From Acidobacteria bacterium bin61 (GTDB taxonomy: Bacteria; Acidobacteriota; Vicinamibacteria; Marinacidobacterales; SMYC01): a stretch of 64,000 nt of DNA. The number at the start of each line of letters is the position of its first letter. Position 1 is the stretch's first letter. The notes beneath the pieces are model-generated. The model was not told where the DNA came from. It saw only the letters and a list, made by a program, of their open reading frames with translations, and ran no database searches. Of the stretch, positions 3,492 to 50,559 are shown piece by piece. Position numbers and translations under genes: made by a program. The DNA is taken from the NCBI GenBank assembly GCA_963578475.1, contig CAUZCL010000005.1:60530-124529 (forward strand), read 5' to 3'.

Positions 3492-4504
3492 ATGCGCGTT
3501 CGGATGCCGCTACTCGTTCTACTCGCAGCCGCGTTCTCGTCTCCCGCCTGCCAAGACGTGCACGCGCCCGCGGTGGCGCCCGAGTCAGCCGATAACAAGC
3601 TCATCCAAAACCGCGGTGAAGGCAAAGATCGGTGGTGGGACAAGCTCCCGCGCGCGCGGCGTGAAGCGCTTTCACCAAGGTCGAACAAAGTCAGGACTGG
3701 TTCGAGGTCTACGAGCTCCAGCCAGGGCTTTTCGCTATCTATGAGCCGGGCCAGTTCGAGGAAGTGATCTCCTATCTTTTCGTCGGAACGGAAAAAGCGC
3801 TGCTCTTCGACGCGGGCATCGGTGTCAGCAATATGCGGCAAGTCGTCGCCGAGCTCACCGAGCTCGAGCCCATCGTCGTCAACTCTCACGCCCACTATGA
3901 CCATGTCGGCGGCAACCACTCTTTCTCGAAGGTCAGAGGCACCGAGACCAAGTACACCGCGCGCAACGCCAAGGGTCGCGCCCACGAAGCCGTCGCCGAG
4001 TTCGTCGGCGAAGGGTGGATTTGGAAGCCTACGCCGGACGGGTTTTCGAAAGAGAGCTACCGCTCTGAAGCGTTCGACGTCGTGGAAACGATACGGGACG
4101 GCGATGTCTTCGATCTGGGTGGCCGGAGTCTCGAAGTCCTTTGGACACCCGGGCACGCACCTGATGCGCTGTGTTTGCTCGATCGCGAGAACCGGCTTCT
4201 TCTCACCGGCGACACGTTCTACCCAGCAACGCTCTACGCCCATCTCGACGGGTCGGACTTCGCGGCTTATCGCGCGACGGCCCGGCGCCTATCCGCGCTC
4301 GCTGAAAAAGGCACCGACCACGTCGACACGCTGCTTCCCGCGCATAACGAGCCGTGGGTCTCGAGCGACTACTTAGAGAAGATGCGCGACGCGTTCGATT
4401 CCATCGCCCACGACGAGACCCCGTTCGTGCTCACGGACGGCAATCGCGAATACAAGTTCGATGGATTCACGATTCTGACACGCGATTCGCCAGCGACCCA
4501 GTAG
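3492..4504 (+). pseudogene. Secreted MBL-fold metallo-hydrolase, apparently frameshifted near 3650-3665
   Basis: Intact ORF 3764..4504 carries HAHYDHVGG (HxHxDH) and downstream His/Asp ligands. The expected MBL N-terminus (FEVYELQPGLFAIYEPGQFEEVISYLFVG) is encoded upstream in the same frame but without a start codon. A signal peptide (MRVRMPLLVLLAAAFSSPAC) is encoded in another frame (ORF 3453..3767). The frames meet in a cgcgcgcgcgg repeat. Confidence 0.55.
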
Positions 4505-4977
4505 TTACACGTCGGGTGGTAGAGAAGGCGGACGCGGAACGGCGCTCAGCCAACGCTTTTTGCGAGGCTTTCCGCTACCGGGTCTCTCCCACCCTTTCTT
4601 GCCGCCGGGGATCAGGCGGAACCGTGGCCGCGCGGCGCGCGGCGCGCACGCGTCGCAGAAACCCTGCCATTTGTCCGTGGGGCTCGAGCAGGATCGACAA
4701 GAACCGAACATAGCATAACTCCAAGTTGATAATTATAAGAGGGTTCAAGAAACTGTCCGGGGGGCCAATAGCCTCGAAACCCGCGCTGAGATTAACTCGA
4801 AACGTGCCTTGGACTCAAGCGGCGTGGGAAAAGCGCCTCCACGACCGTGGTGAGCGTCTCACCGCAATCGGCCTGGACCTTTACATCAAGCTCGCCATCC
4901 GCGCGGGTTTTGCCGAGATTCACCATCACGACGGGAATCTGGTTTTGCGCCGCGCGTTTCACGAATCGGTAGCCCGA

Positions 4978-25759: not shown

Positions 25760-26032
25760 ATGGAATCCTTCTGGCAAGACCTTAGATACGGCATCCGAAG
25801 CCTTCTGAAGACGCCTCGCCTCACGGGGTTGGTGCTGCTCTTGATGGCGCTGGGCACGGGCCTCACCGTCACCGTCTTCACTTTTCTCAACGCTCGATCC
25901 CGCCCTGTGGGTGCCATGGGTTTTCGCGCCCGAGGAGCGCGCCAATCGACAAACGCATGTCTTCTCGCTAGCTACTTGCCCGCGCGGCAGGCAGGTAGGA
26001 TCCAGCCGTCGGTGGCACTTCGACACGAGTAG
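25760..26032 (+). pseudogene. Remnant of an ADOP/MacB-like FtsX permease: N-terminal about 45 aa joined directly to the C-terminal about 20 aa (internal deletion)
   Basis: MESFWQDLRYGIRSLLKTPRLTGLVLLLMALGTGLTVTVFTF matches the conserved permease N-terminus and ...ASYLPARQAGRIQPSVALRHE* matches the conserved C-terminus. Only 90 aa in between versus roughly 800 aa expected. Confidence 0.55.
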
Positions 26033-26883
26033 CCGTCTGGCCGCCCGTATCGGAAGGCGACTTTCTTGCCCCCCTGCTGTTGTGCCGGCCACTTGGGGCG
26101 AGCCCGGCCTTTATGGAATGGCAGCGCCTCAGTTGCAACGCAACACGGCGATGGGTCCATGCGCGTCGCGCGCCGCGCCGGGACGTAGCAGGCCACGATC
26201 GCTACCGCCGCCAGCAAAAGCGGCATGCCGACAAAGGTCACCGGGTCGGTAGCGCTCACGCCGAACAGCAAGGTGGAAAGTACTTCGGTGGCGAACAACG
26301 CACTCGGGACGCCAATGACGATGCCCACGAGAATGAGACGCAGGCCCTGACTAATTACGAGTCCGAAGATTTCAGCGGCCGGCGCGCCGAGGGCCATCCG
26401 AATGCCGAGCTCGCGCGCTCGCTGGCTGACCGTGTAGCTGATGAGACCATAGAGAGCGATCGAGGCAAGGAGCAAAGCGACGACACCAAAGATCGAGCCG
26501 AGAATCAATGTGAATCTCCGCTCGGCCATAGCTTGCGACACGTAGTCCGTCATGGGAAGTAACGCGTGAACGGGAAGGTCCTCATCGATAGAGTGCACGG
26601 CGTCTCGGACGACGCTCGCAAGAGCCGAGGGCTCGCCTTCGGTGCGGATAACAATGTCCATGCTGCGGTTGAATCGTTGTCGGCAAGGGAGGTGCACCTA
26701 CTCGATTCCTGCCCGCGACAGATCTCTGAAATGAACGTGCTCCACGACCCCGACGACTTCGGTCCATTCGCGCCGAACGCCCTCCGGTCCGAACACCGGC
26801 AGCATCAATCTTTGCCCGACAGCGTCCTGGCATGGCCACGCGCTACTCGCGAGTACCTCGCGTGTGGTGGGAGATGTCGTCAT
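25972..26883 (-). pseudogene. C-terminal fragment of a second ADOP/MacB-like FtsX permease with an in-frame TAG (26698-26700) and 5' truncation
   Basis: ORFs 26698..26883 (GQRLMLPVFGPEG...WTEVVGVVEHV) and 25972..26697 (IVIRTEGEPSALASVVRD ... LYGLISYTVSQRARELGIRMALGA ... YVPARRATRMDP) are in the same frame, separated only by TAG. No N-terminal half is present. Confidence 0.6.
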
Positions 26884-27130: not shown

Positions 27131-27375
27131 CTCGTAGCGCGTCAGTTGAAGCGGATCGAGCTCGTGCGGAAAAGCCGGCGAGGATCATCCCCGAGGCTGT
27201 CCGCGTATCGACTGGCCACCGAAAGGCCCGCATCACGTCTTTGACATGTGCGTTGGCTCTCGATCAGAAGCTCCAGGCAGAAACTGGATGGCCATCATAC
27301 GGCCTCCCGCGACGCAGTGTCATCCGACTGCAAGGTTGCATGACCGGGATGTCAAGAGTGCTATCCTGACGGGCC

Positions 27376-29166
27376 ATGGTGATGCTTCTTTGGCTCGTGC
27401 TCGCGCAAAGTGTCGAGATCGAACCGTTGGGCGACTTCGCGCTTCCTTATCGCGCCGATTACGTCGGCTCGGAGCGCTGCGGCGCATGCCACCAGGATCT
27501 CGTCGAGCAAGGAAAGACCCACCACATGGCCCAGACCGGGCGTCCCGCGAATGCAAGCGACCCGCTTTTTTCGACCGCGTCGGGCGAGGGCGCCCAGACC
27601 ATTCCACGCGCCGAGGACGTTTCCGCAATCCTCGGCTCGGGAAAGCACGGTGTCACCCCGATCCGAGCCGCTCCCGGACGCGCCATCCGCGAGCACTTGC
27701 TGTCTTACTCGGCCGTTCTCGGAAGCTGGTTCCGCACACCGGGCACGGAAGACACCGACGACCCTCTCGGGAGCCCCCAGACAGTCGAGGGGTCACGTGC
27801 CTGCCTCGGCTGTCACGCGACCACGATCGCATGGAAAGACAATGTCCTAGTCGCGTCGCAGTCCGAGCTCGGGATTCAATGCCAGCGATGCCACGGCCCC
27901 GGAAGCGCGCATATCGACGCTGTTGCCGGCGACTCGCCGGAAGCAACCAAGATATTCAACCCCGGCGTTCTGACGAGGCACGGACAGGTACGTTTTTGCG
28001 CGCAGTGCCACCGCCAACCCATCGACATCGAGCCGCTCGAGGTGCTTGGGCGCGACAAAAAGCTCGCGCGTCACGCGGGGGCGGGACTAATGATGAGCGC
28101 ATGTTTTCGCTCGTCGCCGCGGGATCGTACGCTGACCTGCACCGACTGCCACAGTCCGCATAGAAACACCACTGCCGCCGATCACGTCCAATATCGTGAA
28201 ACGTGCTTGCGTTGCCACACCGAGCCCGGTCCCGCGCACGAGTACGAGCGGGTCACACCGTCTTCGGACTGCATCGGCTGCCACATGCCGAAAGAGTCGG
28301 AGGGTTTCTACGGCATGACGTTCACCGATCATTGGATTCGGGTGCCGGGTCGCGCCTCGCGTCAACGTGACGACCTGGACTACCTCGAGCTTCTCTATCG
28401 CAACGAGTGGGAGATCGACGGGATCGGCGAAGAAAGGCGCTCTCGCCTCGCACTTGGGCTCGCAGAAATCTTCTTTGGGCTCGGGCGGGGCGAGGACGCA
28501 TTCCAGTGGGTACGCGAGAGCTTGAGCCACGCCCCCGAAACGCAGCATCGACTCAAAGCGGCCGCAATGTTCCGGGAAGGCGGCGCGCTCGACGAGGCAG
28601 AAGCCATTCTGCACGAAGCACTTGGCCTCGACGCCAATCTGTTGCGCGCCCATTTCGATCTCGGAGAGATCGCTGCGGAGCGCGGTGCGTATGAAGAAGC
28701 GACGGCCCACTACGAGCGGGCCCTGGCTATCAGAAACGATTTCGCCGAAGGCCATACTGCTCTGGGAGCTGCGCTGCGGCACCAGCATCGTTTGACGGAA
28801 GCGCTCGAGCATTATCGCGCGGCCTTCAACCTGGCACCGGAAAACTCGCCTGATGACTGGATGGTGCTCGACGGCCTCGCCTGGGTCCTCGCGACACACC
28901 CCGAGCCCGCGTTGAGAGATCCCGAGGAGGCTTTGCGACTCGCCGAGCGAGCGGCGACGGTTACCGACTACAACAACCCGATCGTGCTCGATACGCTCGC
29001 GGCCGCCTATGCTGCGACAGGAGACCTAGTGACGGCACGAAACGCCGTCCAGCGAGCGATCGAGATCGCGGAAAAAGCTGGAGTCAGCGAGCTGGTCGCG
29101 GTTTTCCACGAGCGGCTCGCGGTCTACGAGAGCGGAGCGGCCTTCGTGGCACCGCCCCCGCGCTAG
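27376..29166 (+). CDS. Multiheme cytochrome c (7 CxxCH) fused to a C-terminal TPR-repeat domain
   Basis: CGACH, CLGCH, CQRCH, CAQCH, CTDCH, CLRCH, CIGCH in the N-terminal roughly 330 aa. C-terminal roughly 250 aa forms TPR-like helical repeats. Confidence 0.8.
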   Translation: MVMLLWLVLAQSVEIEPLGDFALPYRADYVGSERCGACHQDLVEQGKTHHMAQTGRPANASDPLFSTASGEGAQTIPRAEDVSAILGSGKHGVTPIRAAPGRAIREHLLSYSAVLGSWFRTPGTEDTDDPLGSPQTVEGSRACLGCHATTIAWKDNVLVASQSELGIQCQRCHGPGSAHIDAVAGDSPEATKIFNPGVLTRHGQVRFCAQCHRQPIDIEPLEVLGRDKKLARHAGAGLMMSACFRSSPRDRTLTCTDCHSPHRNTTAADHVQYRETCLRCHTEPGPAHEYERVTPSSDCIGCHMPKESEGFYGMTFTDHWIRVPGRASRQRDDLDYLELLYRNEWEIDGIGEERRSRLALGLAEIFFGLGRGEDAFQWVRESLSHAPETQHRLKAAAMFREGGALDEAEAILHEALGLDANLLRAHFDLGEIAAERGAYEEATAHYERALAIRNDFAEGHTALGAALRHQHRLTEALEHYRAAFNLAPENSPDDWMVLDGLAWVLATHPEPALRDPEEALRLAERAATVTDYNNPIVLDTLAAAYAATGDLVTARNAVQRAIEIAEKAGVSELVAVFHERLAVYESGAAFVAPPPR

Positions 29167-29736: not shown

Positions 29737-31842
29737 CTATTCGCCGGGCAGTCCAGCCAGTCTGGCCTGTACTCCTCTTTGATCGGGCTTCAGTTCGAGT
29801 GAACGCTCATAGAGACCTTTCGCTTTGTCGATCTCTCCGAGACGCTCGTAGCAATCCCCAAGCGCATTCAGCGCCGTCGTATCGGGAGCCCGGATCGCCG
29901 CGGAGCGCTCAAGGTAATCTTTCGCGCGGGCATAGTCTTCTTTGATGTAATAGGCAAAAGCCATTCCTTCGACAACTTCGTACTCGTTCGGAAAGGAGTC
30001 CTCGAGAGGCGTGAGCAACTCGAGCGCGCGATCCGCATCGCGGTCGAAGAGCACGATTCCGGCTAGCCGCCACTTCGCCATCGGCAGGTTGGGATTGTCG
30101 GCGGCCACCGCTTTCTCATACTGCGCCCTGGCTTCTTGAGTGCGTCCGGACGACATGAGCTCACTGCCAATCGTCATATCGAGCAATCCGGCCACTTCCG
30201 TGTTGAAGCTGTGACGATAAATGAACGCCGGGCGAGGCACTTCATTTCTCGGGCTGACGGTCAGGGGAGTGAGTTTCGACGCGAGGACTGTCCCGTCGGA
30301 GCCGACGAGCTGCGCCCGCATCGTGTAAAAACCGCTATCGAGACCCAGGAGCGAGACTTCCTTCACGACCGCGCCGTCCCTCGCGGCGACGCGTTCCTCG
30401 TCAATCACGTTCTGCTCGGCACCCAAGATCTGGAAAACAACCTCCTGCCCTGGCTCGCCCCCGATTACTTGGACGAAAGCGCGCACGTTGGAGGCGACCG
30501 AGAACACGTTCCCTACGGAGGGATAGACTTCCACTGAGCCGACTTGATACGCGCGGTGTGTCGCCGGGCCGGTGAGATCATTTTCGCCGCCATATCCGAG
30601 CACGATATCGCTGAGGGCAGGCTTGCCTTCCTCGATGGCCGGAACGTGAAGGTCGAACTCCGCCGCCGTGTAGTCCTTCGTCGCTCGATTTTTCAACACG
30701 ATGCTGATTTTGTAGTCGCCAGGGATCAACGGAAAATTGTCGCGGTAAGCGAGCGGATAGTGACTCGCCCGTTTGAACTGGGCCGCACTCATCTGCAGAA
30801 GGGGCTGGTTCAAATTGTACGCGACGGTCCGGCCTTCGAGGTCGCGTGCTTCGAAATCGACATCGAGCGTCGTATAGTGCCGCGTCCTGCGCTCGTCCAC
30901 CTCGAAAGTGAAGTTGGTAGGGTCGATATCGAACGCGAAATGAACGAATGGGATGTTGCCAGGCCCATATAGCACCGCGTAGCCACTACGGCTGGCAAAA
31001 TATTTGAACGAGTAGTCCGCGCTGACCATGTGGCCGAATTGCTTGTAGCCCTCGAGATCTCGAGTATCGACCCTTTTCGTGGGTGACGTTTCGATGTCGG
31101 CGAACGTGCGCTGCGCGCCCAGGGACGGACGGACGTTGAGCTCGAGAGGGTCGATCTGGGCGCGGCCGGAGAAAATGTCGAAGCCCGTGTTCTCCGTCAA
31201 ATCCACCGTCAGCACGGCACGAGCGAGGTCGAGCGAGAGCCTCGAAATGACTTCCAAGCCCTGGTGCTGATTCACTTGAAAGTTCTGGCTCACGTAGCCA
31301 CCACGCAGGATGGCCTGAGGCCCATCGTTGAACGGGTTGTAGAGCTGGAACTCCCCGATGTCATTATCCTTGTAGAACATCAGATTGAAGCGCGGCGGGA
31401 GCCCGTCATTGGGCTCACCTCTATAGATCCAAAGCTCCGTTTCCACGACTTCGTTGTAACCGACATAGGCTTGGATCTCCGCGGGCTCACCGAGGATGAT
31501 GTAATACCTGCCGCGATCGGTTTTCCAACCGGGGCGCGGAGAATCGCGCCCGAGGACGGTAAGCGCGTGTTCGAGGCGGCGGTAGTGCTCGACTTGAAAC
31601 TCGTTCTCGAGCGTGGCGGGATCGGGATCGCGGCGCGCCCAAAAAGCTTCGATGAAGCGCGTGCGCTCTTCACGTGTCGCGAGCTCGAGAAAAATATCCT
31701 TCTCAATGTCGGTGATGATATACACGACCTCCATCTCGAACCACTCACGATAGTCGTCGGCGACTTTGTCGAGGCGGTCATCCGCTAAAGCGGCAGCGGC
31801 GACGAGCAGAATGGGCAGCGTTTTGACAATCCAGTTTGCCAT
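29737..31842 (-). CDS. GWxTD domain-containing protein with C-terminal TPR repeats
   Basis: GWKTDRGRYYIILGEP (GWxTD signature) near the N-terminus after signal peptide MANWIVKTLPILLVAAAALA. TPR-like C-terminus. Start moved to the internal ATG (ORF listed to 31908). Confidence 0.7.
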   Translation of the reverse strand: MANWIVKTLPILLVAAAALADDRLDKVADDYREWFEMEVVYIITDIEKDIFLELATREERTRFIEAFWARRDPDPATLENEFQVEHYRRLEHALTVLGRDSPRPGWKTDRGRYYIILGEPAEIQAYVGYNEVVETELWIYRGEPNDGLPPRFNLMFYKDNDIGEFQLYNPFNDGPQAILRGGYVSQNFQVNQHQGLEVISRLSLDLARAVLTVDLTENTGFDIFSGRAQIDPLELNVRPSLGAQRTFADIETSPTKRVDTRDLEGYKQFGHMVSADYSFKYFASRSGYAVLYGPGNIPFVHFAFDIDPTNFTFEVDERRTRHYTTLDVDFEARDLEGRTVAYNLNQPLLQMSAAQFKRASHYPLAYRDNFPLIPGDYKISIVLKNRATKDYTAAEFDLHVPAIEEGKPALSDIVLGYGGENDLTGPATHRAYQVGSVEVYPSVGNVFSVASNVRAFVQVIGGEPGQEVVFQILGAEQNVIDEERVAARDGAVVKEVSLLGLDSGFYTMRAQLVGSDGTVLASKLTPLTVSPRNEVPRPAFIYRHSFNTEVAGLLDMTIGSELMSSGRTQEARAQYEKAVAADNPNLPMAKWRLAGIVLFDRDADRALELLTPLEDSFPNEYEVVEGMAFAYYIKEDYARAKDYLERSAAIRAPDTTALNALGDCYERLGEIDKAKGLYERSLELKPDQRGVQARLAGLPGE

Positions 31843-31985
31843 GATCTTGTAGACTAGCGGGTTCAGTCGCGCTACGCAACACCGTGCTGGCTCCTTACGA
31901 AGCCCCAACTACCCCGTCGTCAAGCGATGAACTATAGGTCGCAACCGTATGATTACAAAGAGATTAAGTGCCTCGGTCGCAGACT

Positions 31986-33425
31986 TTACTGCTCGCGCTT
32001 CCGAAGCCCGACCTCTACGCGCTCGCGGACGGCGTCAGGAACCGTCTGCCCGAGCTCACGAGCCCGCTCGAGATGAGAAAGCGCGTCCGCATAGTCTCCC
32101 GTCACGGCAAGGGCCGCGCCGAGCTGCAAGTGAACGACACCGAGCTCGGGCTCGACCTGAAGCACCTCGAGGTAGTGATCGGCCGCTGCGCGGTAGCGCT
32201 TCAGCCGGAATAGAAACTCTGCAAGCGAGCGGCGGGCAGCTACGTTTTCGGGCTCGAGCTCGAGCGCGTGCTCGTAGTGCGTCATGGCTTCGTCGGTACG
32301 ACCTTTGAAAGCCAATATGCTCGCCAAGCTCACGAGCGTAGGGACATGGTCGCTGCCTGCCAACAACGATTCTTCGAAGTGGCTCACCGCATCGTCATAG
32401 GCGCCTTCCCGCCCAAGCACAGCTGCGAGGCCGGCATGTCCGGCTGCGTCATCGCCTTTGATCTCGAGCGCCGCCCGGTAATGTTCTTTCGCTTCGAGAT
32501 CTTTGTCTTGTCGCAACAAGACGTCACCTAAGCGCACTCTCATCGCGGCGTCGTCGGGCCTGAGCGCCACCAAGTGTCGATAGGTAGACTCCGCCTGTAC
32601 CAGGTTGCCCGCTTCAGCGAAATCTCGGGCGCGTCCCAGCTGGGCGGTCGAGGACACAGATTCCTGCAACATTTGGATGTGGATCGGATCGGCAATGGGA
32701 ATGGACGCGGCCGAGGTCGTCACCCTCCTGGCCGCTTCGACGGCCTTATCGTTTTCGCCCATACGCCGGTAGAGCCTCGCGAGAGCCGCATAGGTCGATC
32801 CCGCATCAGGGCTCAGCTCGGATGCTCGCTCCAAGTGAGCGCGGGCTTTCTCGAGCTCGCCTCTGCCCATCATCATGCGACCGAGCGCAAGCTCCGCCGA
32901 AGCGTCTTTCGGGTCGAGCTCCACAGCACGGATGTAGAGCGCCTCCGCATCCTCCATCGCACCCTCTTCTTCGAGGAGCTCGGCGCGCACGACGAGCAGA
33001 GCAGGGTAGTCGGAGCTCACTTCGAGAGCGCGCGCGGTCTCTTCCATGGCGGCGGCGCGATCGAAGTCGAGCAACGCATGCACCAAAAGGTAGTGCCAAC
33101 GAAAATCCGAAGGCTCGAGCTCGAGAGCTTTCTGATAGCAAAGAGCCGCCTCCTGCTCGAGGCCGTGCGCGTGGTACACAACGCCTAGATCTCCCCACGC
33201 CTCGTGAGAGCTCGGCGCCTTCTCGACGCCCTCGCGAAAATATTGAATCTTGTGAGCAACCTCGGGCTCCATCTGCGATCGGTCCACGTCAGGAATCTCG
33301 GGCGCCTGCGAGTTGGCAAGCCGGATGACCGCCACGAGGGCGACCCCACCGACGATCAGCCCGGCGATTTTCGGAGCGTATCTGGAGGTCGAGTGCTTGA
33401 GTTGTTTGCGCTGACTCCTCTCCAT
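31986..33425 (-). CDS. Membrane-anchored tetratricopeptide-repeat protein
   Basis: N-terminal TM helix IAGLIVGGVALVAVI followed by more than 10 TPR-like repeats. Confidence 0.7.
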   Translation of the reverse strand: MERSQRKQLKHSTSRYAPKIAGLIVGGVALVAVIRLANSQAPEIPDVDRSQMEPEVAHKIQYFREGVEKAPSSHEAWGDLGVVYHAHGLEQEAALCYQKALELEPSDFRWHYLLVHALLDFDRAAAMEETARALEVSSDYPALLVVRAELLEEEGAMEDAEALYIRAVELDPKDASAELALGRMMMGRGELEKARAHLERASELSPDAGSTYAALARLYRRMGENDKAVEAARRVTTSAASIPIADPIHIQMLQESVSSTAQLGRARDFAEAGNLVQAESTYRHLVALRPDDAAMRVRLGDVLLRQDKDLEAKEHYRAALEIKGDDAAGHAGLAAVLGREGAYDDAVSHFEESLLAGSDHVPTLVSLASILAFKGRTDEAMTHYEHALELEPENVAARRSLAEFLFRLKRYRAAADHYLEVLQVEPELGVVHLQLGAALAVTGDYADALSHLERARELGQTVPDAVRERVEVGLRKREQ

Positions 33426-33562
33426 CGCTCCTATTGTCTGAGGGGTCTGGTCGGGCTGTCAACAACGCGCCTGGTTGACAGGGCTGAGCGGGCGCAGGAA
33501 AATGCAAGGGCATCTCCCATGACCCCCTACGCGACGCAAGTGGCTGTACAGCAAAGGCTTCT

Positions 33563-35254
33563 ATGAACCAACGACTCGCGCTCCTCGTTTGCACAACCTA
33601 CCTCTCAACATTCGCGATTCGCCACACCGAGGCGCAAGATGACGCCTTTTTCACCGACATTACCGAAGCGGTCGGGCTCGACTTCGAGCACGAGCCAGGC
33701 ACGGAGGGAAACTACTGGGCGCCCGAGGTCATGGGCTCGGGAGGCGCTTTCTTCGATTTCGACGGCGATGGGGATCTCGGCATCTACCTGATCCAAGGCG
33801 GCTCGCTCCCCGAATCCAAGAGTACGAAGCGCCTTCCGAACAGGCTGTTTCGTCAAAACGACGACGGATCCTTCGAAGACGTGACCGAAAGCTCCGGTTT
33901 GGGCAACACCGGCTACGGGACGGGCGTGGCCATCGGGGACGTCGACAATGATGGCCTCGTCGACGTCTATGTCGGGAACTACGGACCCGACGCCCTCTAC
34001 CGCGGCAAAGGCAACGGTATCTTCGAGGACATCACCAAAGCCGCGGGTATCGCGGACAACGCATGGACAGCCTCGATCGCGTTTTGCGACTACGATGCCG
34101 ACGGTTTCTTGGATATCTACGTCTCACGTTACGTCAAACACGACGCCACCAAAAAATGCGTCAGCGGTTCCGGCGCCTCGGACTATTGCAGCCCCCAGAG
34201 CTTCGACTACGAGAGTGACACACTCTATAAGAACGATGGCGACGGTACGTTCACGGACGTTTCCAAAAAAGCCGGTATCGCCACCGTCGAAGCACCGGGC
34301 CTCGGAGTTCTTTGCCAGGATTTTACTGGCGATGGATTATTGGATTTCTACGTCGCCAACGACGGCGAAGCCAATCAGCTTTGGGAAAATGCCGGCGATG
34401 GAACGTTCTCGGACCAGGCAATCATCATGGGCGCGGCTCTAAACTCGTTTGGTCGTCCCGAGGCGAGCATGGGGGTAGCACTCGGCGACGTGGATGGCGA
34501 CAGCGATTTCGACCTGTTCATGACGCATTTGATCAACCAGACCAATACGCTCTATTTGAACGACGGCACTTGGGGCTTCGAAGACGTCACCTCTGCACGG
34601 GGGCTCGGGGCGTCGAGTTTGGAATATACGGGGTTCGGCACGGCTTTCGTGGACCTGGATTTGGACGGAGATTTGGACCTCGCCGTGGTGAACGGCCGCG
34701 TGGATCAGAAGCCGGCGCATCCCGACGCGAAGCTCGGTGACTATTGGAACCTCTACGCGGAGCCGAATTTCCTTCTGGAAAATGATGGCAGCGGAAAATT
34801 CAAAGACATTAGCGAAAAAGGCGGCGCGTTCACCTCCCTCGTCGAGATCAGCCGAGGTCTCGTTCTCGGTGACGTCGATCGCGATGGGGACATCGACTTC
34901 CTGGTGTCGAACACCGCGGGACGCGCCCGGTTGTTCCGCAACGACGCTCCGAGAAAGGGCCGCTACTTGATGGTGCGCGCCTACGACAAAGAGCTCCAGC
35001 GCGATGCGCACGGCGCCGTTGTCACGGTGAGCGCTTCAGGCAAGACCTATGCGCGCACCGCCGATTCCAGTTATAGCTATCTGTCCAGCAACGAGCCAAA
35101 GGCGCATTTCGGAATTCCTGGCGCGAGCCGCGCGGATTCGATTCGAGTGCGCTGGCCCGACGGATCCGAAGAGGTTTTTCCCGGCGTGGAGCTAGACCAG
35201 GCCGTGACGCTCGAAAAGGGCAAAGGCCGCAAAGCCACGAATCCCGGAAACTGA
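33563..35254 (+). CDS. CRTAC1-family secreted protein (FG-GAP repeats plus ASPIC/UnbV domain)
   Basis: Signal peptide; FDFDGDGDLGIYL, DYDADGFLDIYV, DFTGDGLLDFYV, DLDLDGDLDLAV, DVDRDGDIDFLV. C-terminal UnbV_ASPIC-like end. Confidence 0.85.
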   Translation: MNQRLALLVCTTYLSTFAIRHTEAQDDAFFTDITEAVGLDFEHEPGTEGNYWAPEVMGSGGAFFDFDGDGDLGIYLIQGGSLPESKSTKRLPNRLFRQNDDGSFEDVTESSGLGNTGYGTGVAIGDVDNDGLVDVYVGNYGPDALYRGKGNGIFEDITKAAGIADNAWTASIAFCDYDADGFLDIYVSRYVKHDATKKCVSGSGASDYCSPQSFDYESDTLYKNDGDGTFTDVSKKAGIATVEAPGLGVLCQDFTGDGLLDFYVANDGEANQLWENAGDGTFSDQAIIMGAALNSFGRPEASMGVALGDVDGDSDFDLFMTHLINQTNTLYLNDGTWGFEDVTSARGLGASSLEYTGFGTAFVDLDLDGDLDLAVVNGRVDQKPAHPDAKLGDYWNLYAEPNFLLENDGSGKFKDISEKGGAFTSLVEISRGLVLGDVDRDGDIDFLVSNTAGRARLFRNDAPRKGRYLMVRAYDKELQRDAHGAVVTVSASGKTYARTADSSYSYLSSNEPKAHFGIPGASRADSIRVRWPDGSEEVFPGVELDQAVTLEKGKGRKATNPGN

Positions 35255-37450
35255 ATGGCATACTTTTCTTCCGAGAAGAAGCTGCCCTCCCTTCTTCTCT
35301 GCGTTTTCTTGCTCTTTCTCGTCGCCGTGGTGCTTCGAGCGCAGCCGAGTGACGGGCATGCCCGCATGCTCGAGTTGCTGCGACAGATCATCGAGCGTGC
35401 TCCGAACGAAAGCCTCTATCTCGGCGATGGGGAGGCTCGGGCGATGAGGGCTCGCGTCGAGGCGCTCGGACCGGATGCTCCCGACTACGTTCAGTTCGAG
35501 GCCTATTTGAAGCTCGGTGAGGCGGAACAACATGTCGGTCGGGAACAGGCGGCCATCGACTACCTCGAGCGCGCTCACGCCCTGCTGCCGCAGCTCGAGA
35601 ACGACTTGGCGCCAAATTGGATTGGGCGGCTGAAGTTCGCGTTGGGAGTGGCTCATCTTCGTTTCGGGGAGACTCAGAACTGCGCGCTGCACCACGCCCC
35701 AGAAAGTTGCCTTCTCCCGATTCGCGGTAGCGGCATACACGTCCTCAAGGAGCCATCCGAACGAGCGAGCGTGTTCTTCACCGAGGTCTTACAGCACGAC
35801 CCACCTGGTTCGAAAGCGTATCTCACCGCCCAGTGGCTTCTGAACATCGCCTATATGACTCTCGGCCGCTACCCCGAAGATGTGCCTCATGACTACCTCA
35901 TTCCGCCGGAGGTCTTCAGCTCCGACGAGCCTTTCCCTCGGTTCAATAACGTCGCGCAGGAAGCGGGGATGGCGACGTTCGCTCTATCGGGCGGCGTCGT
36001 TGTCGAGGACTTCGACGAGGACGGTTTCCTCGATTTGCTCGTCTCCTCCTACGACCCTTCGGAGCAACTCCGCCTGTTTCAGAACAACGAGGACAAGACA
36101 TTCACCGACGTGACGCTAAACGCTGGGATAGTAGGTATTTACGGCGGCCTCAACATGGTGCAGGCCGACTACGACGACGACGGCGACATGGACGTGCTTG
36201 TTTTGCGCGGCGGGTGGCTCGGCAAAGGCGGGCAACATCCGAACTCGCTCCTTCGGAACAACGGCGATGGCACGTTCACCGACGTCACCTTCGACGCGGG
36301 GCTCGGTGAAGTGCACTTGCCAACACAGACCGCGTCATGGGCCGATTTCGACAACGATGGTGACGTGGACCTCTATATCGGGAATGAGACCAACGGCGGA
36401 CTCGACGGTTTGTGTCAACTATTCGAGAACCTTGGCAACGGTCGGTTCGCCGACGTGGCGCCCAGTGCCGGAGTAACCAACAGAAAGTTCACGAAAGCAG
36501 TTATCTGGGGTGACTATGACGGCGATCGGTACCCGGATCTGTTCGTGTCCAACGTCGATGGAGCCAATCGCCTCTATCACAACAACCGCGACGGAACGTT
36601 CGACGACGTCGCGATGGCACTCGGCGTCACCGAGCCGGCCACGAGCTTTCCCGCATGGTTTTGGGACTACGACAATGATGGCGTGCTGGATCTCTACGTG
36701 ACCGGCTACGACGCACTCGTGGACGACGTTGCGCGATCCTATCTCGGGGAGCCGTTCACCGCGGAATTGGCTCGCCTCTATCGCGGCGATGGCAAGGGTG
36801 GTTTCGTGGACATGACCTCCGCTACCGGGCTGACGCGGCCGAGCGCTCCCATGGGATCCAATTTCGGTGACTTGAACGGCGATGGCTTCCTGGACTTCTA
36901 TCTGGGAACCGGCTACACCGCCTATTTCGCGTTGGTGCCCAACCTGATGTATCTCAATCTCGAAGGCAAGCGCTTTGCCGACGTGACGACCGCAGGTGGC
37001 TTCGGTCACTTACAGAAAGGGCACGGCGTCGCCTTCGTCGACTTCGACAATGACGGCGATCAGGACGTCTTCGAGCAAATGGGGGGTGCACTGCCCGGCG
37101 ACAAGTACTTCGACGTTCTCTACGAGAACCCCGGGTTCTCTAACCACTATCTCGCCGTCGAGCTCTTCGGCAGGGAGACGAACCGCGCCGCGATCGGTGC
37201 TCGCATCCGCGTGGACGTCGCGGCCTCGAACGGGAGCCGCTCCATCTACAAGCACGTGAACAGCGGGGGCAGCTTCGGGGCCAACTCGATCCGCCGGCAG
37301 CTCATCGGACTCGGGAACGCGGAGCGTATCGAACGGCTTACGATTTATTGGCCGACGACGGATCGTACGCAGACCTTCGAGAACGTGCCGCTCGACCGAA
37401 CGATCCAGATCGTCGAAAACCTCGATAGCTTACGGCTGCTTCCCTTCTGA
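35255..37450 (+). CDS. CRTAC1-family secreted protein with an N-terminal helical (TPR-like) extension
   Basis: Signal peptide, roughly 200-aa helical N-domain, FG-GAP repeats (DFDEDGFLDLLV, DYDDDGDMDVLV, DFDNDGDVDLYI, DYDGDRYPDLFV, DFDNDGDQDVF), UnbV_ASPIC C-terminus. Starts 1 nt after the upstream stop. Confidence 0.85.
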   Translation: MAYFSSEKKLPSLLLCVFLLFLVAVVLRAQPSDGHARMLELLRQIIERAPNESLYLGDGEARAMRARVEALGPDAPDYVQFEAYLKLGEAEQHVGREQAAIDYLERAHALLPQLENDLAPNWIGRLKFALGVAHLRFGETQNCALHHAPESCLLPIRGSGIHVLKEPSERASVFFTEVLQHDPPGSKAYLTAQWLLNIAYMTLGRYPEDVPHDYLIPPEVFSSDEPFPRFNNVAQEAGMATFALSGGVVVEDFDEDGFLDLLVSSYDPSEQLRLFQNNEDKTFTDVTLNAGIVGIYGGLNMVQADYDDDGDMDVLVLRGGWLGKGGQHPNSLLRNNGDGTFTDVTFDAGLGEVHLPTQTASWADFDNDGDVDLYIGNETNGGLDGLCQLFENLGNGRFADVAPSAGVTNRKFTKAVIWGDYDGDRYPDLFVSNVDGANRLYHNNRDGTFDDVAMALGVTEPATSFPAWFWDYDNDGVLDLYVTGYDALVDDVARSYLGEPFTAELARLYRGDGKGGFVDMTSATGLTRPSAPMGSNFGDLNGDGFLDFYLGTGYTAYFALVPNLMYLNLEGKRFADVTTAGGFGHLQKGHGVAFVDFDNDGDQDVFEQMGGALPGDKYFDVLYENPGFSNHYLAVELFGRETNRAAIGARIRVDVAASNGSRSIYKHVNSGGSFGANSIRRQLIGLGNAERIERLTIYWPTTDRTQTFENVPLDRTIQIVENLDSLRLLPF

Positions 37451-45604: not shown

Positions 45605-45904
45605 ATGACCAACAATCCCAAACCCAAGGTCCTGAGTGCAGCCGAGGCCAAACTCCATTTCGCAGAAGCTCTTCGCAACGTGGACAAAGGGAACGTGATT
45701 GTAATCACTCGCTACGGAAAGCCAGTGGCAGCGCTTGTAGGTCCGGCGGACCTCGCGCAACTTCAGAGACTCAAGTCCCAGGTTCCAGAGGAAGGTTTGG
45801 CTCAGCTCGTGCACCGATGGAAGGACTCTCGAGAGTTTTCCGACGCCTTGGACGAAGTCGCCAGCAATCGCACCGAAGGCAGGGTAGCTCCTCAACTGGA
45901 CTGA
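45605..45904 (+). CDS. phd: Phd/YefM family type II antitoxin
   Basis: N-terminus KVLSAAEAKLHFAEALRNVDKGNVIVITRYGKPVAALV matches the Phd/YefM fold. Internal ATG chosen (ORF listed from 45569). Confidence 0.7.
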   Translation: MTNNPKPKVLSAAEAKLHFAEALRNVDKGNVIVITRYGKPVAALVGPADLAQLQRLKSQVPEEGLAQLVHRWKDSREFSDALDEVASNRTEGRVAPQLD

Positions 45905-45909
45905 ACCAT

Positions 45910-46335
45910 TTGTACCTGTTCGACACGAATGCGATATCGGAGGCCTTGAGGCCTCGTCCCAACCAAGAGTTTGTCACCTGGATCCAGTCTTTGGCTCCCG
46001 AGAGCCAATTCACCAGCATCGTTGTTATAGCGGAGCTCTATGCTGGTGCCTACCATTCTCGTGATCCATCAAAGTGGCTTCAACGACTCGAGCAAGAAGT
46101 TTTCCCACGCTTGCGCATCTTGGATTTCGACATTGAATGCGCTCGAGTGTATGGGCAAATTCATGCAGAGCTAGCTCGAGCTGGCACCCCCATTGGCGAC
46201 ATCGATACTGAGATTGCGGCAACCGCGCTACGCCACGACCTGGTTTTGGCAACGGCCAACGTAAAACACTTTCAGCGAGTTTCCGGGTTGGCGCTCTGGT
46301 CGTTCACCCCGGGCGACGAAGCCAGGTCGCGATAA
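45910..46335 (+). CDS. vapC: VapC family PIN-domain toxin
   Basis: YLFDTNAISE start (PIN Asp), conserved acidic residues (IAEL, TANVKHF). TTG start 6 nt after the antitoxin stop. Confidence 0.75.
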   Translation: MYLFDTNAISEALRPRPNQEFVTWIQSLAPESQFTSIVVIAELYAGAYHSRDPSKWLQRLEQEVFPRLRILDFDIECARVYGQIHAELARAGTPIGDIDTEIAATALRHDLVLATANVKHFQRVSGLALWSFTPGDEARSR

Positions 46336-46846: not shown

Positions 46847-47908
46847 CTAGCGCCTCACGGCCGTGATCTCTTTGATCTGCTCGCGGATCGCCGGGGCCTT
46901 TCCCGCCTCTTCGAGGCGCGTCCACAAACCCGCGACCGTGTCGCGGTCGACGAGGCCGGCGGGCGATCCGGATTCGGACGTCGTGAGTCCCTCCGCTTTG
47001 CGGAAGGCATCCACGGCCGTGACGAGCTCTTCCGTGTAGATGTAGGCACCGTTCTCGCTCGCTAGCTTGGACCGGCCCGCGCGAAAGTAGCCAAGCGCAT
47101 GAAGCATGATCTTGAGCTGCACGACGTCTCTGCCCGAATATTGCTGCAGCGTTCGAAACCCGAGCGTCTGGCCGATCGTGTCGTAGATACGCCGGAGCTC
47201 GGCGACGGGCGTTTCGTTCTCGCAGACGTTCACGTGGGTCGAGACCCGATCGGCTCGGCGCGAATGTCCTTCACGCGGGTCCGCAACGATGACGGCCGCA
47301 GATTGCGTTCGGCCTTTGCGAGCATCACCTCCGGTCGCCTGGCCCGCTTCGAGCGCGGCGATGAGGCGGTCGGCGAGGTGCCGGCCGCTGCCTTCGGTCG
47401 ACTCGAAGGAGCGAGCGACAGCCTCAACGACTTCAGGTCCTACGAGCGAGTTTCCCTGCGCGGCGTAGTTTCGGCCCGCGAGCTCACCCGACCAGGAGCG
47501 CGTTTCGGCGCCCGTATGTTGCGCCGTGCCGCCTTTCAAACCGATGGCACCAATCTGACGATGCGCGGCCCGCTCGTCATGAGCGAGGGTGCGGCTGAGC
47601 GCTTCCTCCGCACTATGGCCCTTCGCGAGCAAATCGAGGATCTCGTTTCCGTACTCGGTGCGTGTGCTCGCTTGCGTCGCGACCGCGCCGACGCCTGCGC
47701 GCACCCAGGGAACCCCGTTGCCGACACACGGGTTCCGCGTCGTGACGGCAACGCCAGATTCACCCGTTATCGGATAGATCGCGGCGATCGAGAAGGTTTG
47801 AAAGACGAGGTCCTCACCCGGCGCGGGCCACGCCGCTGGCTCCTGCGGCTTGGCTTCGATGGGAACCCAGAGAGAAACGAGAAAGGCAATAGCGGCGCGC
47901 TTCGACAT
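46847..47908 (-). CDS. DUF1028 (Ntn-hydrolase-like) protein fused to a C-terminal peptidoglycan-binding domain, secreted
   Basis: Signal peptide. FSIAAIYPITGESGVAVTT (DUF1028 N-terminal pattern). C-terminal LQ..LHALGYF...GAY..T..AV..F.K..GL (PG_binding_1-like). Confidence 0.6.
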   Translation of the reverse strand: MSKRAAIAFLVSLWVPIEAKPQEPAAWPAPGEDLVFQTFSIAAIYPITGESGVAVTTRNPCVGNGVPWVRAGVGAVATQASTRTEYGNEILDLLAKGHSAEEALSRTLAHDERAAHRQIGAIGLKGGTAQHTGAETRSWSGELAGRNYAAQGNSLVGPEVVEAVARSFESTEGSGRHLADRLIAALEAGQATGGDARKGRTQSAAVIVADPREGHSRRADRVSTHVNVCENETPVAELRRIYDTIGQTLGFRTLQQYSGRDVVQLKIMLHALGYFRAGRSKLASENGAYIYTEELVTAVDAFRKAEGLTTSESGSPAGLVDRDTVAGLWTRLEEAGKAPAIREQIKEITAVRR

Positions 47909-47957: not shown

Positions 47958-48206
47958 TCAGGCAGATTCGGACGGTTCTTTTTGGATCCCCGCGAGAAGC
48001 GCCGTCGCCTCTTCCGAGCGATCTTTGGTAACGTCGAGGCGCACCTTCCCCAGGAACGGATTGCCGGAGAATACCGCGCCAGCGTGCTCTCCTAGGGCGA
48101 CGTATTCGATGCCGGCGCCATCGAGAACCGATTTCGCGATGGCGAGGAGAGCCGGGTTCGCAGAGTCGAAAATGTTGACGAGCTCGATATCGTTGTTGTC
48201 AGCCAT
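47958..48206 (-). CDS. DUF2007-like small protein (putative signal-transducing protein commonly next to histidine kinases)
   Basis: 82-aa acidic protein immediately downstream (7 nt) of the histidine kinase on the same strand. Confidence 0.5.
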   Translation of the reverse strand: MADNNDIELVNIFDSANPALLAIAKSVLDGAGIEYVALGEHAGAVFSGNPFLGKVRLDVTKDRSEEATALLAGIQKEPSESA

Positions 48207-48212
48207 GGCCTC

Positions 48213-50255
48213 TCACGTCAGTGTTGTCGAATAAGCAGCCCCCACCCGCGGGCGTTCGGCGGGAGGCCCACCCTTGATGGGGATCGCCACGGTAAAGGTC
48301 GAGCCCTTTCCGAGCTCGCTCGTCACCGTGACCCGCCCGCCATGGTTCTGCACGATGCGGTAGCAGATCGACAAGCCGAGGCCTGTCCCTACACCGACAC
48401 CCTTGGTCGTGTAACCGGGGTCGAAAATACGGGCGAGATCCTCTTCCGCGATGCCGGCTCCGTCGTCGGAAATGCGCACGATGGCCTCGTCGCCGTCGCG
48501 AAGCGTCTCGATCCGAATCTGACCGCGATCGTCGATAGCCTGAATGGCATTGACGATGAGATTCATGAAGACTTGATTGAGCTGTCCCGCATAACCGTTC
48601 ACCTGCGGGATGTCGCCATAGACTTTGTCGACCGAGATGCGATTTCTCGTTTTGTGCTCGACGAGAGCGAGTGTCTCTTCGAGCCCTTGGATGAAGTCGA
48701 TGCTCTGCCACTCCGACTGATCGAGGCGCGCGAACTTCCTGAGATTCGAGACGATGTGAATGATGCGGCGAGACGCCGTCTCGTTGACGGCGTTCATCTC
48801 ACGCAGCACGGCGATGGAGCTCGAGATCGATTCTAGCTCGGGAGCGGTCAAGCTCTCACCGGAGGCCAGGCGGTCACCCACGCGCGCGAGCGCTTTTCCT
48901 TCCGTCTGCGTATTGCTGTGGATGGCGCCGAGCGGAGTGTTGAGCTCGTGGGCAATGCCGGCGACGAGCTGTCCAAGCGACGCCATTTTCTCGGACTGAA
49001 TCAGCTGGAGCTGCGTCTCTGATAGCTCCCGGAAATCGACGAAGCGCTGGAAGGCAACCGAGATCGCATCGGCGCACTCGGTCAGCGTTGTCACGTGCTC
49101 TTCCGTCGGCTCGTCCGCCTGCGAGCTAGAGGCGAAGAGGACCCCGTGCGAGAACGGCACGGCGACGAGCCAGCGCGACTCGAGGTGCCCGCCCTCTTCC
49201 GCAAAGTCAGTGCCGTCGAACCGCAGGGGCTCGACCCGTTGTTCTTTCCACGCATCGATGAGCTGCTGGACCTGCGGCGTGTCGTTGACCGAGAGGTCCT
49301 TTGTCACTAGCCCCCCGCCCTCCGTCGCGCTGTAAGTCTGCACCTTGTCGTCGTTGAAATTAATGATGGCGATGCCACAGACCGAAAAGCGAAGCCCGAG
49401 CCGCCGTAGCTCGTCCTGCAAGACGTCGATGGCGAGCGCCAGGTCGTCCGGTTTCTTCATCAAGAAGACTTGTCTCACCACCTTGGCGACCGAGCGGCCT
49501 CGGCGGAGCTCGCGGTTTTGCTCGTGGAGCGTCAATCTCTCGAGAGCATCGAACAAGTCCTGTGGCGTCATACGCATATGGCCGAACTCCGCGTAGTAGA
49601 CCCAGCGCACGATCCCGTATTTGTCGACGAGGATGCCCGTCGGAAACGCGACATCTTTTCCGGGACCGCCGCCCCGGTGGCGGATGTCGAGCTTGTCGAT
49701 GAGCTCGCCGTTCTCGTCGGAGAGAAAGGTGAAATCAGCCCCGACCTTCCGTCGGAAGGCTTCCGAGATCGCAGGAGGATCGACGCTAATAGCGAAAATC
49801 CGGGCATCGGCATCCGCGACCCTCGCTTGGAATTTCTGGAGCTGCCCGAGCTCACTCGTGCAAAACGGTCACCAGGGCCCCCGGTAGAAGAGGTAAAGCG
49901 CTGTTTTGCCGTCGAGCCCCTGGAGGCTTTTCGAGTCGAAGGTCCCGCCGCGGGAATCCTGGAGCGTGAAGCTTGGAAACGGCTCGCCCAGCTTCAAGCT
50001 CGTTTCTCCGCGCGAGAATCGCGCGCCGATGCTCATGTACCAGGTAAGGCCGGCGAGCGTCACGAGCTCGACGAGGAAGAGAACCCAATGAACGACGTTT
50101 AGCCTCGTCAGCACGGTAGCAAAGCCGATGGCCGCGCTCGCGCCGACGAGCGCGAATTGCTCGAAAGGATAGCGGCGATACTTACCGCGCCGAAGCGTCC
50201 ACTGGAAGAGAAAGACGCTCACAACGAGGATTGCGATGCCTACGAAAGCCAGCAT
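48213..50255 (-). CDS. Candidate selenoprotein: 3-TM anchor plus AhpC/TSA–TlpA-type redoxin domain (W-U-P-F-C, U encoded by in-frame TGA 49869-49871) fused to sensor domain plus HisKA/HATPase histidine kinase
   Basis: The frame is open from 50255 to 48213 except for one TGA. Upstream of TGA: LKLGEPFPSFTLQDSRGGTFDSKSLQGLDGKTALYLFYRGPW. Downstream: PFCTSELGQLQKFQARVADADARIFAISVDPPAISEAFRRKVGADFTFLSDENGELIDKLDI...FPTGILVDKYGIVRWVYY...TPQDLFDALERL (redoxin fold). It then continues without a stop into the GAF/PAS-like region, the H-box LGQLVAGIAHELNTPLGAI, and the N/G1/G2 boxes of the ATPase domain. The ORF table splits it into 49869..50255 and 48213..49610 only because of the TGA. Confidence 0.6.
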
Positions 50256-50559
50256 GTGTGTACTCCATACTAGCGTAATCCTTCTGGGCAGAGCCCCGCC
50301 AGCACGGCCTCATCTGGCAGTGTGGTGAAAGCGACATGACGAGCACCATCCCAAAAAATCCATCACGAATAGCCACCCGAAGAGAACCTGCTGCCGGTCG
50401 GACAGACGAGCGTGGATTAGCAGCGAGTCCGTCACTAGCGTTTACGAGTTTCGTTCTGAATGCTACACTAGATCCAAAGACTAACAATCCAGTTCACCTT
50501 CACGGTAACCGAAACTAACCAATTTTCGGGCCGGTCGTCTGTCTTCTTCAGGTGGTTGT

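Follow-up and report, generated by a model that had tools for sequence, protein, structure and literature searches.

A conserved in-frame TGA in a redoxin-histidine kinase gene of Acidobacteriota and its putative decoding as selenocysteine

The stretch of DNA analyzed here (the window) comprises 64,000 nucleotides (nt) of contig CAUZCL010000005.1 of Acidobacteria bacterium bin61 (assembly GCA_963578475.1) and carries on its minus strand a gene for a membrane-anchored sensor histidine kinase whose redoxin domain contains a single in-frame TGA at codon 129. This TGA is very likely a conserved, functional recoding site. We estimate at roughly 0.85 the probability that UGA-129 encodes selenocysteine (Sec) specifically, the insertion itself being what we infer from the sequences compared. 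A Sec codon in a redoxin fused to a sensor kinase had been proposed in the initial annotation of the window and is supported by the conservation of the TGA, the constraint on both its flanks, a hairpin directly downstream and the existence of homologs with Cys at the same position. The features that bear on the recoding are the following.

48213..50255, minus strand: putative selenoprotein sensor histidine kinase gene, complete, 680 residues; ATG at 50255, terminator TGA at 48213-48215
50263..50266, minus strand: GGAG, Shine-Dalgarno-like motif 7 nt 5' of the ATG, read from the sequence and of presumed function
49869..49871, minus strand: in-frame TGA, codon 129, proposed Sec codon; TGA in 17/17 sequences, Cys in standalone homologs
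49860..49862, minus strand: Cys132 codon, TGC in 17/17 sequences; proposed resolving partner of Sec129
49838..49855, minus strand: hairpin GUGAGCUCGGGCAGCUCC resembling a selenocysteine insertion sequence (SECIS); RNAalifold consensus, paired in 17/17 sequences, lowest synonymous divergence

Translation of 48213-50255 (minus strand, 681 codons) agreed with the frame as originally described, which is open from the ATG to the terminal stop with codon 129 as the single internal stop. The DNA around this codon reads ggg ccc tgg TGA ccg ttt tgc and the protein YRGPW[TGA]PFCTSELGQLQKF, so that the TGA occupies the first Cys position of the W-C-x-x-C site of a redoxin domain, as had been noted; both the W-[TGA]-P-F-C context and the Pfam match to AhpC-TSA are in agreement with this placement. 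TGA otherwise acts as an ordinary stop in these organisms, terminating the kinase gene in 8 of its 12 intact frames (the window's included) as well as many coding-like open reading frames (ORFs) of the window, and a local recoding signal is therefore needed.

Orthologous loci were collected by scanning the species of GTDB, each represented by a single genome. This yielded 17 loci with matches into or through the redoxin domain, all of them from Acidobacteriota metagenome-assembled genomes labelled Vicinamibacteria, 'Candidatus Marinacidobacterales' or Acidobacteriota. TGA was found at the identical column in all 16 loci that retain the region, in the context W/F-[TGA]-P/L-F-C; together with the window these make up the 17 sequences to which counts out of 17 refer (46-97% amino acid identity). 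The 17th locus, L013, is an N-terminally truncated copy that starts mid-redoxin and lacks the first ~150 codons including the Sec site; it is preceded by ~270 nt without an open frame. Twelve of the 17 TGA-bearing sequences, 11 of them from other genomes, are otherwise intact and 680-750 codons long. The orthologs in L002, L003, L014, L016, and L017 are disrupted at other places by further frameshifts or stops; these orthologs belong to OZ/CB-series assemblies, taken to be long-read, and the lesions are probably assembly indel errors.

The initial annotation considered its main alternative to be a pseudogenizing lesion or sequencing error that turned TGC/TGT into TGA in the source genome. The further frameshifts and stops in five orthologs and the truncation of L013 would suit such a history, but the TGA stands in the same column across species-level genomes, assemblers, and habitats, the coding sequence on either side of it is under purifying selection, and no Cys version was found among ~80 protein clusters. 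The ratio of nonsynonymous to synonymous divergence (dN/dS) was 0.20-0.45 for the membrane segment, 0.11-0.26 for the redoxin strands 5' of the TGA, and 0.07-0.23 just 3' of it, with synonymous sites near saturation between clades. Because of the 17/17 conservation, the purifying selection on both flanks, and the conserved hairpin described below, the pseudogene explanation was set aside, and its probability is considered practically negligible.

A search of 5.8 billion proteins returned ~80 clear family members (47-98% identity), all of which start 3' of the TGA column. Their starts are scattered over Met, Val, and Leu positions within the redoxin, and the highest query coverage among them is 79%. 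Since these homologs all begin past the site and at differing codons, they include neither a Cys form of the redoxin-kinase fusion nor a conserved internal start; the scatter is the signature of gene callers halting at a conserved in-frame stop. If the TGA were a true stop, the locus would have two products, a membrane peptide of 128 residues and a truncated redoxin-GAF-kinase with a start of its own. This is how automatic gene callers treat it, and redoxin-less GAF-like kinases do occur in other Acidobacteriota (L018, L019), but the called starts within the redoxin fold are unconserved and the stop would sever the thioredoxin fold right at the active-site Cys. The redoxin strands 5' of the TGA are moreover under selection in the same frame, and the synonymous constraint directly after the TGA would be left unexplained, which makes termination at codon 129 very improbable. 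Comparison of orthologous fusions, a check proposed with the initial annotation, gave the same picture: the site is always TGA and never Cys, and the gene is never split into two conserved genes.

Cys-containing counterparts were found by a search with the N-terminal 252 residues. They are standalone proteins of ~238 residues with three transmembrane (TM) segments and a redoxin domain, share 36-43% identity with the query, and read YRGDWCPFC, with Cys in the TGA column (WCP(F/Y)C in P0121, P0122, P0124-P0126, and P0129). The site thus forms a putative Sec/Cys pair with these homologs, which was the outcome that the proposed alignment to homologs had been meant to confirm. The Cys forms are paralogous standalone redoxins, and their genomic context showed no consistent link to kinases.

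For the analysis of RNA structure the 17 sequences, which are ungapped from the TGA onward, were aligned and folded using RNAalifold, with the U of UGA as position 1. A single element was picked, GAGCU-CGGGC-AGCUC at positions 19-33, starting 15 nt after the UGA. It consists of a 5-bp stem (G19-C33 to U23-A29) closed by the loop CGGGC. A further pair, G17-C34, is optional and makes U18 bulge out; the local fold including this pair and the bulge has an energy of -5.4 kcal/mol. All five stem pairs form in 17/17 sequences, the sole change being G-C to G-U in two of them. The codons for E135-L139 show the lowest synonymous divergence of 416 sliding 5-codon windows (0.166 vs. a median of 0.516). 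Gln139 is encoded by CAG in 16/16 sequences, the Gln codons two and five positions further on being split ~50:50 between CAG and CAA, and the Gly of the hairpin is GGG in 13/17 although just 25% of the Gly residues in these genes are encoded by GGG. The exact codon string of the hairpin has a probability of ~0.04 per sequence when calculated from the codon usage of the gene itself. The conservation of the hairpin acts at the RNA level.

The SECIS element of Escherichia coli fdhF has a minimal upper stem-loop with a bulged U17 and a GGUC loop with G23/U24, ~22-25 nt from the U of the UGA. The hairpin described here is similar to it in its short upper stem, its G-containing loop ~20 nt after the UGA, and the possible bulged U below; it differs in having the loop CGGGC instead of GGUC, in lying ~3 nt farther from the UGA, and in having no extended lower stem. 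Bacterial SECIS elements are characterized by a small, G-containing apical loop directly 3' of the UGA (PMC1088965), and such a loop was present 3' of the UGA in the kinase gene, although neither covariation nor unusual stability accompanied it. The SECIS prediction proposed with the initial annotation was accordingly borne out in part: a short, conserved hairpin with G in its loop exists, but the 75-nt region is thermodynamically ordinary.

Several points weigh against Sec at codon 129 or the mechanism proposed for it. The hairpin is small (5-6 bp, -5.4 kcal/mol) and its stem nearly invariant, so that, because compensatory changes are absent, its support is conservation and not covariation; part of the nucleotide conservation could derive from the conserved ELGQL peptide and codon bias. 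The 75 nt after the TGA fold no better than shuffled sequences (z=+1.02), and the minimum free energy structure missed the hairpin. Genes for the Sec machinery (selA, selB, selD, and tRNA-Sec) were not seen in the window and ~0.95 Mb of retrieved loci. Every sequence is metagenome-assembled. Finally, the redox-switch mechanism set out below, which is plausible, and its stimulus are our own inference from domain content.

The search for the Sec machinery used Rfam (gathering thresholds) and ARAGORN, which found no RNA genes in the window and no tRNA-Sec in the 17 orthologous loci, and tblastn with SelA, SelB, and SelD of E. coli, which gave no match in the window or 80 loci. The window was also scanned for other coding frames interrupted by TGA, and no second candidate was obtained. 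When the loci were scanned for interrupted frames of the UxxC/CxxU type, however, a second TGA gene was found ~1 kb 5' of the kinase ortholog in two genomes (L011:4432-5094 and L012:~4204-4863, both plus strand). It encodes a two-domain protein disulfide oxidoreductase with the site FTTPM[TGA]PHCP and matches the NCBIfam model TIGR02187.2 (PDO_seleno_TRX) with 239.9 bits vs. a cutoff of 185. A hairpin (GGCCA-GGU-UGGCC) starts 17 nt after its UGA, with a G-rich loop at a spacing close to that in the kinase gene. TIGR02187 is listed as a UxxC selenoprotein family in a 2026 review (PMC13188914). At least two kinase-bearing genomes therefore appear, judging from family membership, to encode a selenoprotein of an established family. 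Selenoproteins have been recorded in Acidobacteria (Zhang et al., 2006; PMC1794560), and a literature search for Vicinamibacter together with selenocysteine found nothing relevant. Between the second TGA gene and the kinase gene of L011 and L012 lies a PilZ-like ORF (RRKxxR...NLSxxGAF).

The same observations bear on the question whether UGA-129 is read through as another residue, be it Cys via a SelC*-type tRNA-Cys, the residue carried by an allo-tRNA, or Trp or Cys by near-cognate decoding. Opal suppressors resembling tRNA-Sec and acidobacterial allo-tRNAs have been reported (Mukai et al.; PMC5389517), and the lack of Sec machinery in the DNA covered would be compatible with such decoding. 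The site is, however, the classic nucleophilic Cys of a CxxC motif, for which Sec/Cys pairs are the rule (PMC1794560), TGC would serve for Cys and yet is used by none of the orthologs, a TGA gene of a known selenoprotein family adjoins the ortholog in two genomes, and TGA terminates ordinary genes here. Decoding as an amino acid other than Sec is consequently regarded as quite improbable.

The domain architecture of the kinase was determined with Cys placed at the TGA for the Pfam run, and its parts are listed below.

50022..50255, minus strand: N-terminal membrane anchor, residues 1-78; three hydrophobic segments by hydropathy (~2-21, 34-50, 57-77), kept in orthologs
49566..50000, minus strand: AhpC/TSA-fold redoxin domain, residues 86-230; Pfam, PDB sequence alignments, conserved columns
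49464..49565, minus strand: long, highly conserved connecting helix, residues 231-264 (LTLxEQNRELRRGR..VVRQVFLM); helix 102-135 of the AlphaFold2 model, invariant columns
49026..49451, minus strand: GAF-like alpha/beta domain, residues 269-410; AlphaFold2 secondary structure, PF13185 in homologs, invariant columns
48717..49013, minus strand: DHp/HisKA domain, residues 415-513; Pfam, model helices, Foldseek
48276..48710, minus strand: HATPase_c catalytic domain, residues 516-660; N, G1, F, and G2 boxes intact, Pfam 1e-26

The Pfam matches were AhpC-TSA (PF00578; residues 90-218, E=2.4e-22, 79.6 bits vs. a cutoff of 26), Redoxin (E=1.5e-18), HisKA (427-513, E=1.9e-07), and HATPase_c (558-660, E=1e-26), and GAF_2 (PF13185) is the precomputed annotation for several homologs. 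A redoxin followed by a GAF-like segment and a complete HisKA/HATPase_c kinase, as originally read from the translation, is therefore present. In NCBIfam no model reached its cutoff for the kinase protein, the best matches being generic kinase families. The membrane anchor claimed in the initial annotation was likewise found, as three N-terminal hydrophobic segments with a basic loop (RRGKYRRYP) between the first and the second. By the positive-inside rule, and with no TM segment between redoxin and kinase, the anchor is predicted to be oriented N-out/C-in.

The redoxin active site reads W128-U129-P130-F131-C132, and a conserved Pro205 lies in FPTGILVD. From the end of the redoxin to the GAF-like domain runs the 34-residue connecting helix, whose sequence LTLEEQNRELRRGR..VVRQVFLM is almost invariant. 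The GAF-like domain has the invariant residues Cys293, Trp336, and P367-F368-x-H370-G371. Cys293 (49377-49379, minus strand; FSVCGI), like W336 and PFxHG 367-371, is kept in 71/71 aligned family members and could act as an additional site for redox chemistry or ligand binding, or pair with the redoxin active site. The H-box His and the N, G1, F, and G2 boxes of a HisKA-type sensor kinase were all found: the phospho-acceptor His436 (codon 48948-48950) is invariant within AHELNTPLG, and N560, N569, D597, G599, G601, F611, and G623-G627 are invariant in HATPase_c. An AlphaFold2 model of residues 130-680, based on a 71-sequence alignment (mean predicted local distance difference test score 74, redoxin part of low confidence), shows the helix at the redoxin end, the GAF-like domain, two DHp helices, and the ATPase domain in this order, and a Foldseek search with it matched HK853, ZraS, and WalK.

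Related kinases that consist of linker, GAF-like domain, and kinase core but have no redoxin were observed in L018:5903-7813, L019:6001-7875, and L073:3518-5188. Those of L018 and L019 begin at the linker and that of L073 has PAS-like sequence 5' of the shared core, which shows modular exchange of the input domain. The redoxin thus sits at the input position, since the related kinases have at this place either nothing ahead of the core (L018, L019) or PAS (L073).

Sequence comparison with solved structures places the redoxin domain closest to BCP-type peroxiredoxins (2ywn, 1.4e-13; 2cx3) and AhpE, with ResA/TlpA next. In the alignment to 2ywn and 2cx3, U129 takes the place of the peroxiredoxin Thr (PxxxTxxC) and C132 that of the peroxidatic Cys, and the catalytic Arg of 2ywn (LAKRAVFVID) is replaced by Pro205 (AFPTGILVD), which is invariant in the ten sequences of alignment A2. 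Neither the Thr nor the Arg by which BCP/PrxQ peroxiredoxins are recognized is thus present. The WCxxC motif and Pro loop of ResA/TlpA, by contrast, have their counterparts in WUPFC and an invariant FPT, and ResA chains match at 2e-6 to 2e-4. As far as motifs allow a class assignment, the domain fits a CxxC thiol-disulfide oxidoreductase on an AhpC/TSA scaffold, and the absence of the peroxiredoxin Thr and Arg, together with the ResA-type Pro motif, favors a selenol/thiol switch over a peroxidase. The peroxide-sensing role suggested in the initial annotation is disfavored on these grounds.

The domain resembles ResA and TlpA (PDB 3c71, 1st9), which function in cytochrome maturation on the extracytoplasmic side, in its W-C-x-x-C site and in having a Pro-Thr...D motif (FPTGILVD) where these proteins have their cis-Pro loop. 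Unlike them, the redoxin of the kinase carries a putative Sec, serves as an input module, and is predicted from the TM layout to be cytoplasmic and not periplasmic, because no TM segment parts it from the ATP-dependent kinase. Sec at UxxC/UxxU is known from PF00578 Prx-like thiol:disulfide oxidoreductases (Zhang et al., 2006, PMC1794560; table in PMC13188914), and the domain studied here combines PF00578 with UxxC in the same manner: it shares with these selenoproteins the AhpC/TSA fold, a putative Sec as the first residue of UxxC, and Cys in homologs. They are listed without a signaling domain, whereas the protein of the window adds a 3-TM anchor, the conserved helix, a GAF-like domain, and a histidine kinase.

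We propose that UGA-129 would be decoded as Sec, directed by the short hairpin 15 nt downstream, and that the product would be a 680-residue inner-membrane protein with three TM helices, a cytoplasmic W-U-P-F-C redoxin, the connecting helix, the GAF-like domain, and HisKA/HATPase_c. The exposed selenolate of Sec129 would react with an oxidant, disulfide, or electrophile, and a selenenylsulfide would close with Cys132. The change in redox state, located at the N-terminal end of the active-site helix, may reach the DHp helices by way of the connecting helix and GAF-like domain; there it would switch autophosphorylation of His436 and hence the output to an unlinked response regulator. Candidate stimuli include peroxide, disulfide stress, electrophiles, and a membrane redox carrier. 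Because everything past codon 129 needs Sec insertion, no kinase would be made unless both selenium and the Sec machinery were present.

The protein could also be a true selenoprotein in which the redoxin acts as a catalytic peroxidase or oxidoreductase that is tethered to the kinase and does not supply its sensory input. The best solved relatives are indeed BCP-type peroxiredoxins, and the standalone 3TM-redoxin homologs occur without a kinase. Such a role is considered rather unlikely, however, given the U in place of the peroxiredoxin Thr and Pro205 in place of the catalytic Arg, the position of the redoxin where L073 has PAS and where L018 and L019 have no domain, and the almost invariant helix that joins the redoxin to the GAF-like domain. 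Among redox-sensing histidine kinases, ArcB, RegB/PrrB, and the SenS/PdtaS-like kinases use ordinary Cys residues in linker, PAS, or DHp regions. The kinase proposed here would be similar to them in that its output is set by reversible oxidation of a cysteine-type residue; to our knowledge none of them uses a dedicated thioredoxin-fold domain with selenocysteine.

In two reviews of selenoproteins (PMC9312934, 2022; PMC13188914, 2026) the terms 'two-component', 'signal transduction', and 'sensor' are absent and 'kinase' is used for PSTK alone; the families tabulated in the later one are overwhelmingly redox and other enzymes (PMC13188914). In the literature searched, just one selenoprotein histidine kinase was mentioned, a bSECISearch candidate from a Desulfobacula metagenome-assembled genome (Kivenson et al., 2021; PMC8318568, Table S6/S7 #28). 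It was rejected as a relative, being a REC-PAS-histidine kinase-REC hybrid that has no redox motif and no comparative support; its 'U', unlike the one described here, lies 7 residues into an N-terminal extension 5' of an evident Met start. Within what was searched of the literature and the selenoprotein catalogs, the redoxin-kinase selenoprotein fusion is undescribed. The initial annotation had known of no such architecture, and none is found in the selenoprotein reviews or in NCBIfam. It is reasonably probable, though less firmly held than Sec decoding itself, that the protein represents the first signal-transduction kinase among selenoproteins: a two-component sensor that depends obligately on Sec, of which no Cys form is known and in which Sec is the sensing residue.

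If this holds, synthesis of the transmitter would be gated by selenium supply, so that in a clade of Acidobacteriota gene regulation would be linked to both redox sensing and selenium status. A Sec input domain on a histidine kinase would carry selenium biology from catalysis to signal perception and, as no Cys ortholog of the fusion was found, would offer a natural test of why Sec is kept over Cys. The truncated kinases by which gene callers represent the family would be systematic mis-annotations, and use of Sec would appear to extend beyond the classic context of formate dehydrogenase in the Vicinamibacteria/'Marinacidobacterales' group of Acidobacteriota.

The genes kept along with the kinase gene of the window in orthologous loci encode DUF1028, DUF2007, major facilitator superfamily (MFS), and M14 peptidase proteins. 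The two directly downstream are the following.

47958..48206, minus strand: DUF2007 gene, 6 nt 3' of the kinase stop, probably co-transcribed; only in the four closest orthologous loci
46847..47908, minus strand: DUF1028 gene, kinase neighbor in 11/17 orthologous loci

A DUF2007 protein had been placed 7 nt downstream of the kinase; the gene is as stated but the junction TGA GAA GCC ATG leaves a 6-nt gap. DUF2007 carries the label 'signal transducing', and a functional link to the kinase is possible. The DUF1028 gene lies directly 3' of the kinase in most of the loci that have it; in L011 and L012 it is found close by, on the other strand. No response regulator (Response_reg) was found by Pfam among the ten largest ORFs in 33.5-55 kb of the window, in keeping with the original remark that none is nearby. 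Between the MFS transporter and the DUF1028 gene lies a PIN-domain (toxin-like) ORF (45817-46335, plus strand), for which there was no tblastn match in the orthologous loci.

Elsewhere in the window a pair of FG-GAP/ASPIC-UnbV ORFs (33488-35254 and 35255-37450, plus strand), parted by one TGA (35252-35254), was considered as a case of read-through or a selenoprotein and rejected. The two lie head to tail in the same frame, each with its own full domain set, and are tandem paralogs, that is, two complete genes. The ORF at 27370-29166 (plus strand) joins multiheme cytochrome c motifs (Cytochrome_C7, paired CXXCH, MtrC/MtrF-like) to C-terminal TPR repeats, and more TPR/GWxTD proteins are encoded at 29737-33458. 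An ORF of just 241 codons at 25972-26697 (minus strand) encodes the C-terminal domain of an FtsX-like permease. It may represent part of a longer permease of the MacB type, a possible lesion of the kind to which the initial annotation alluded.

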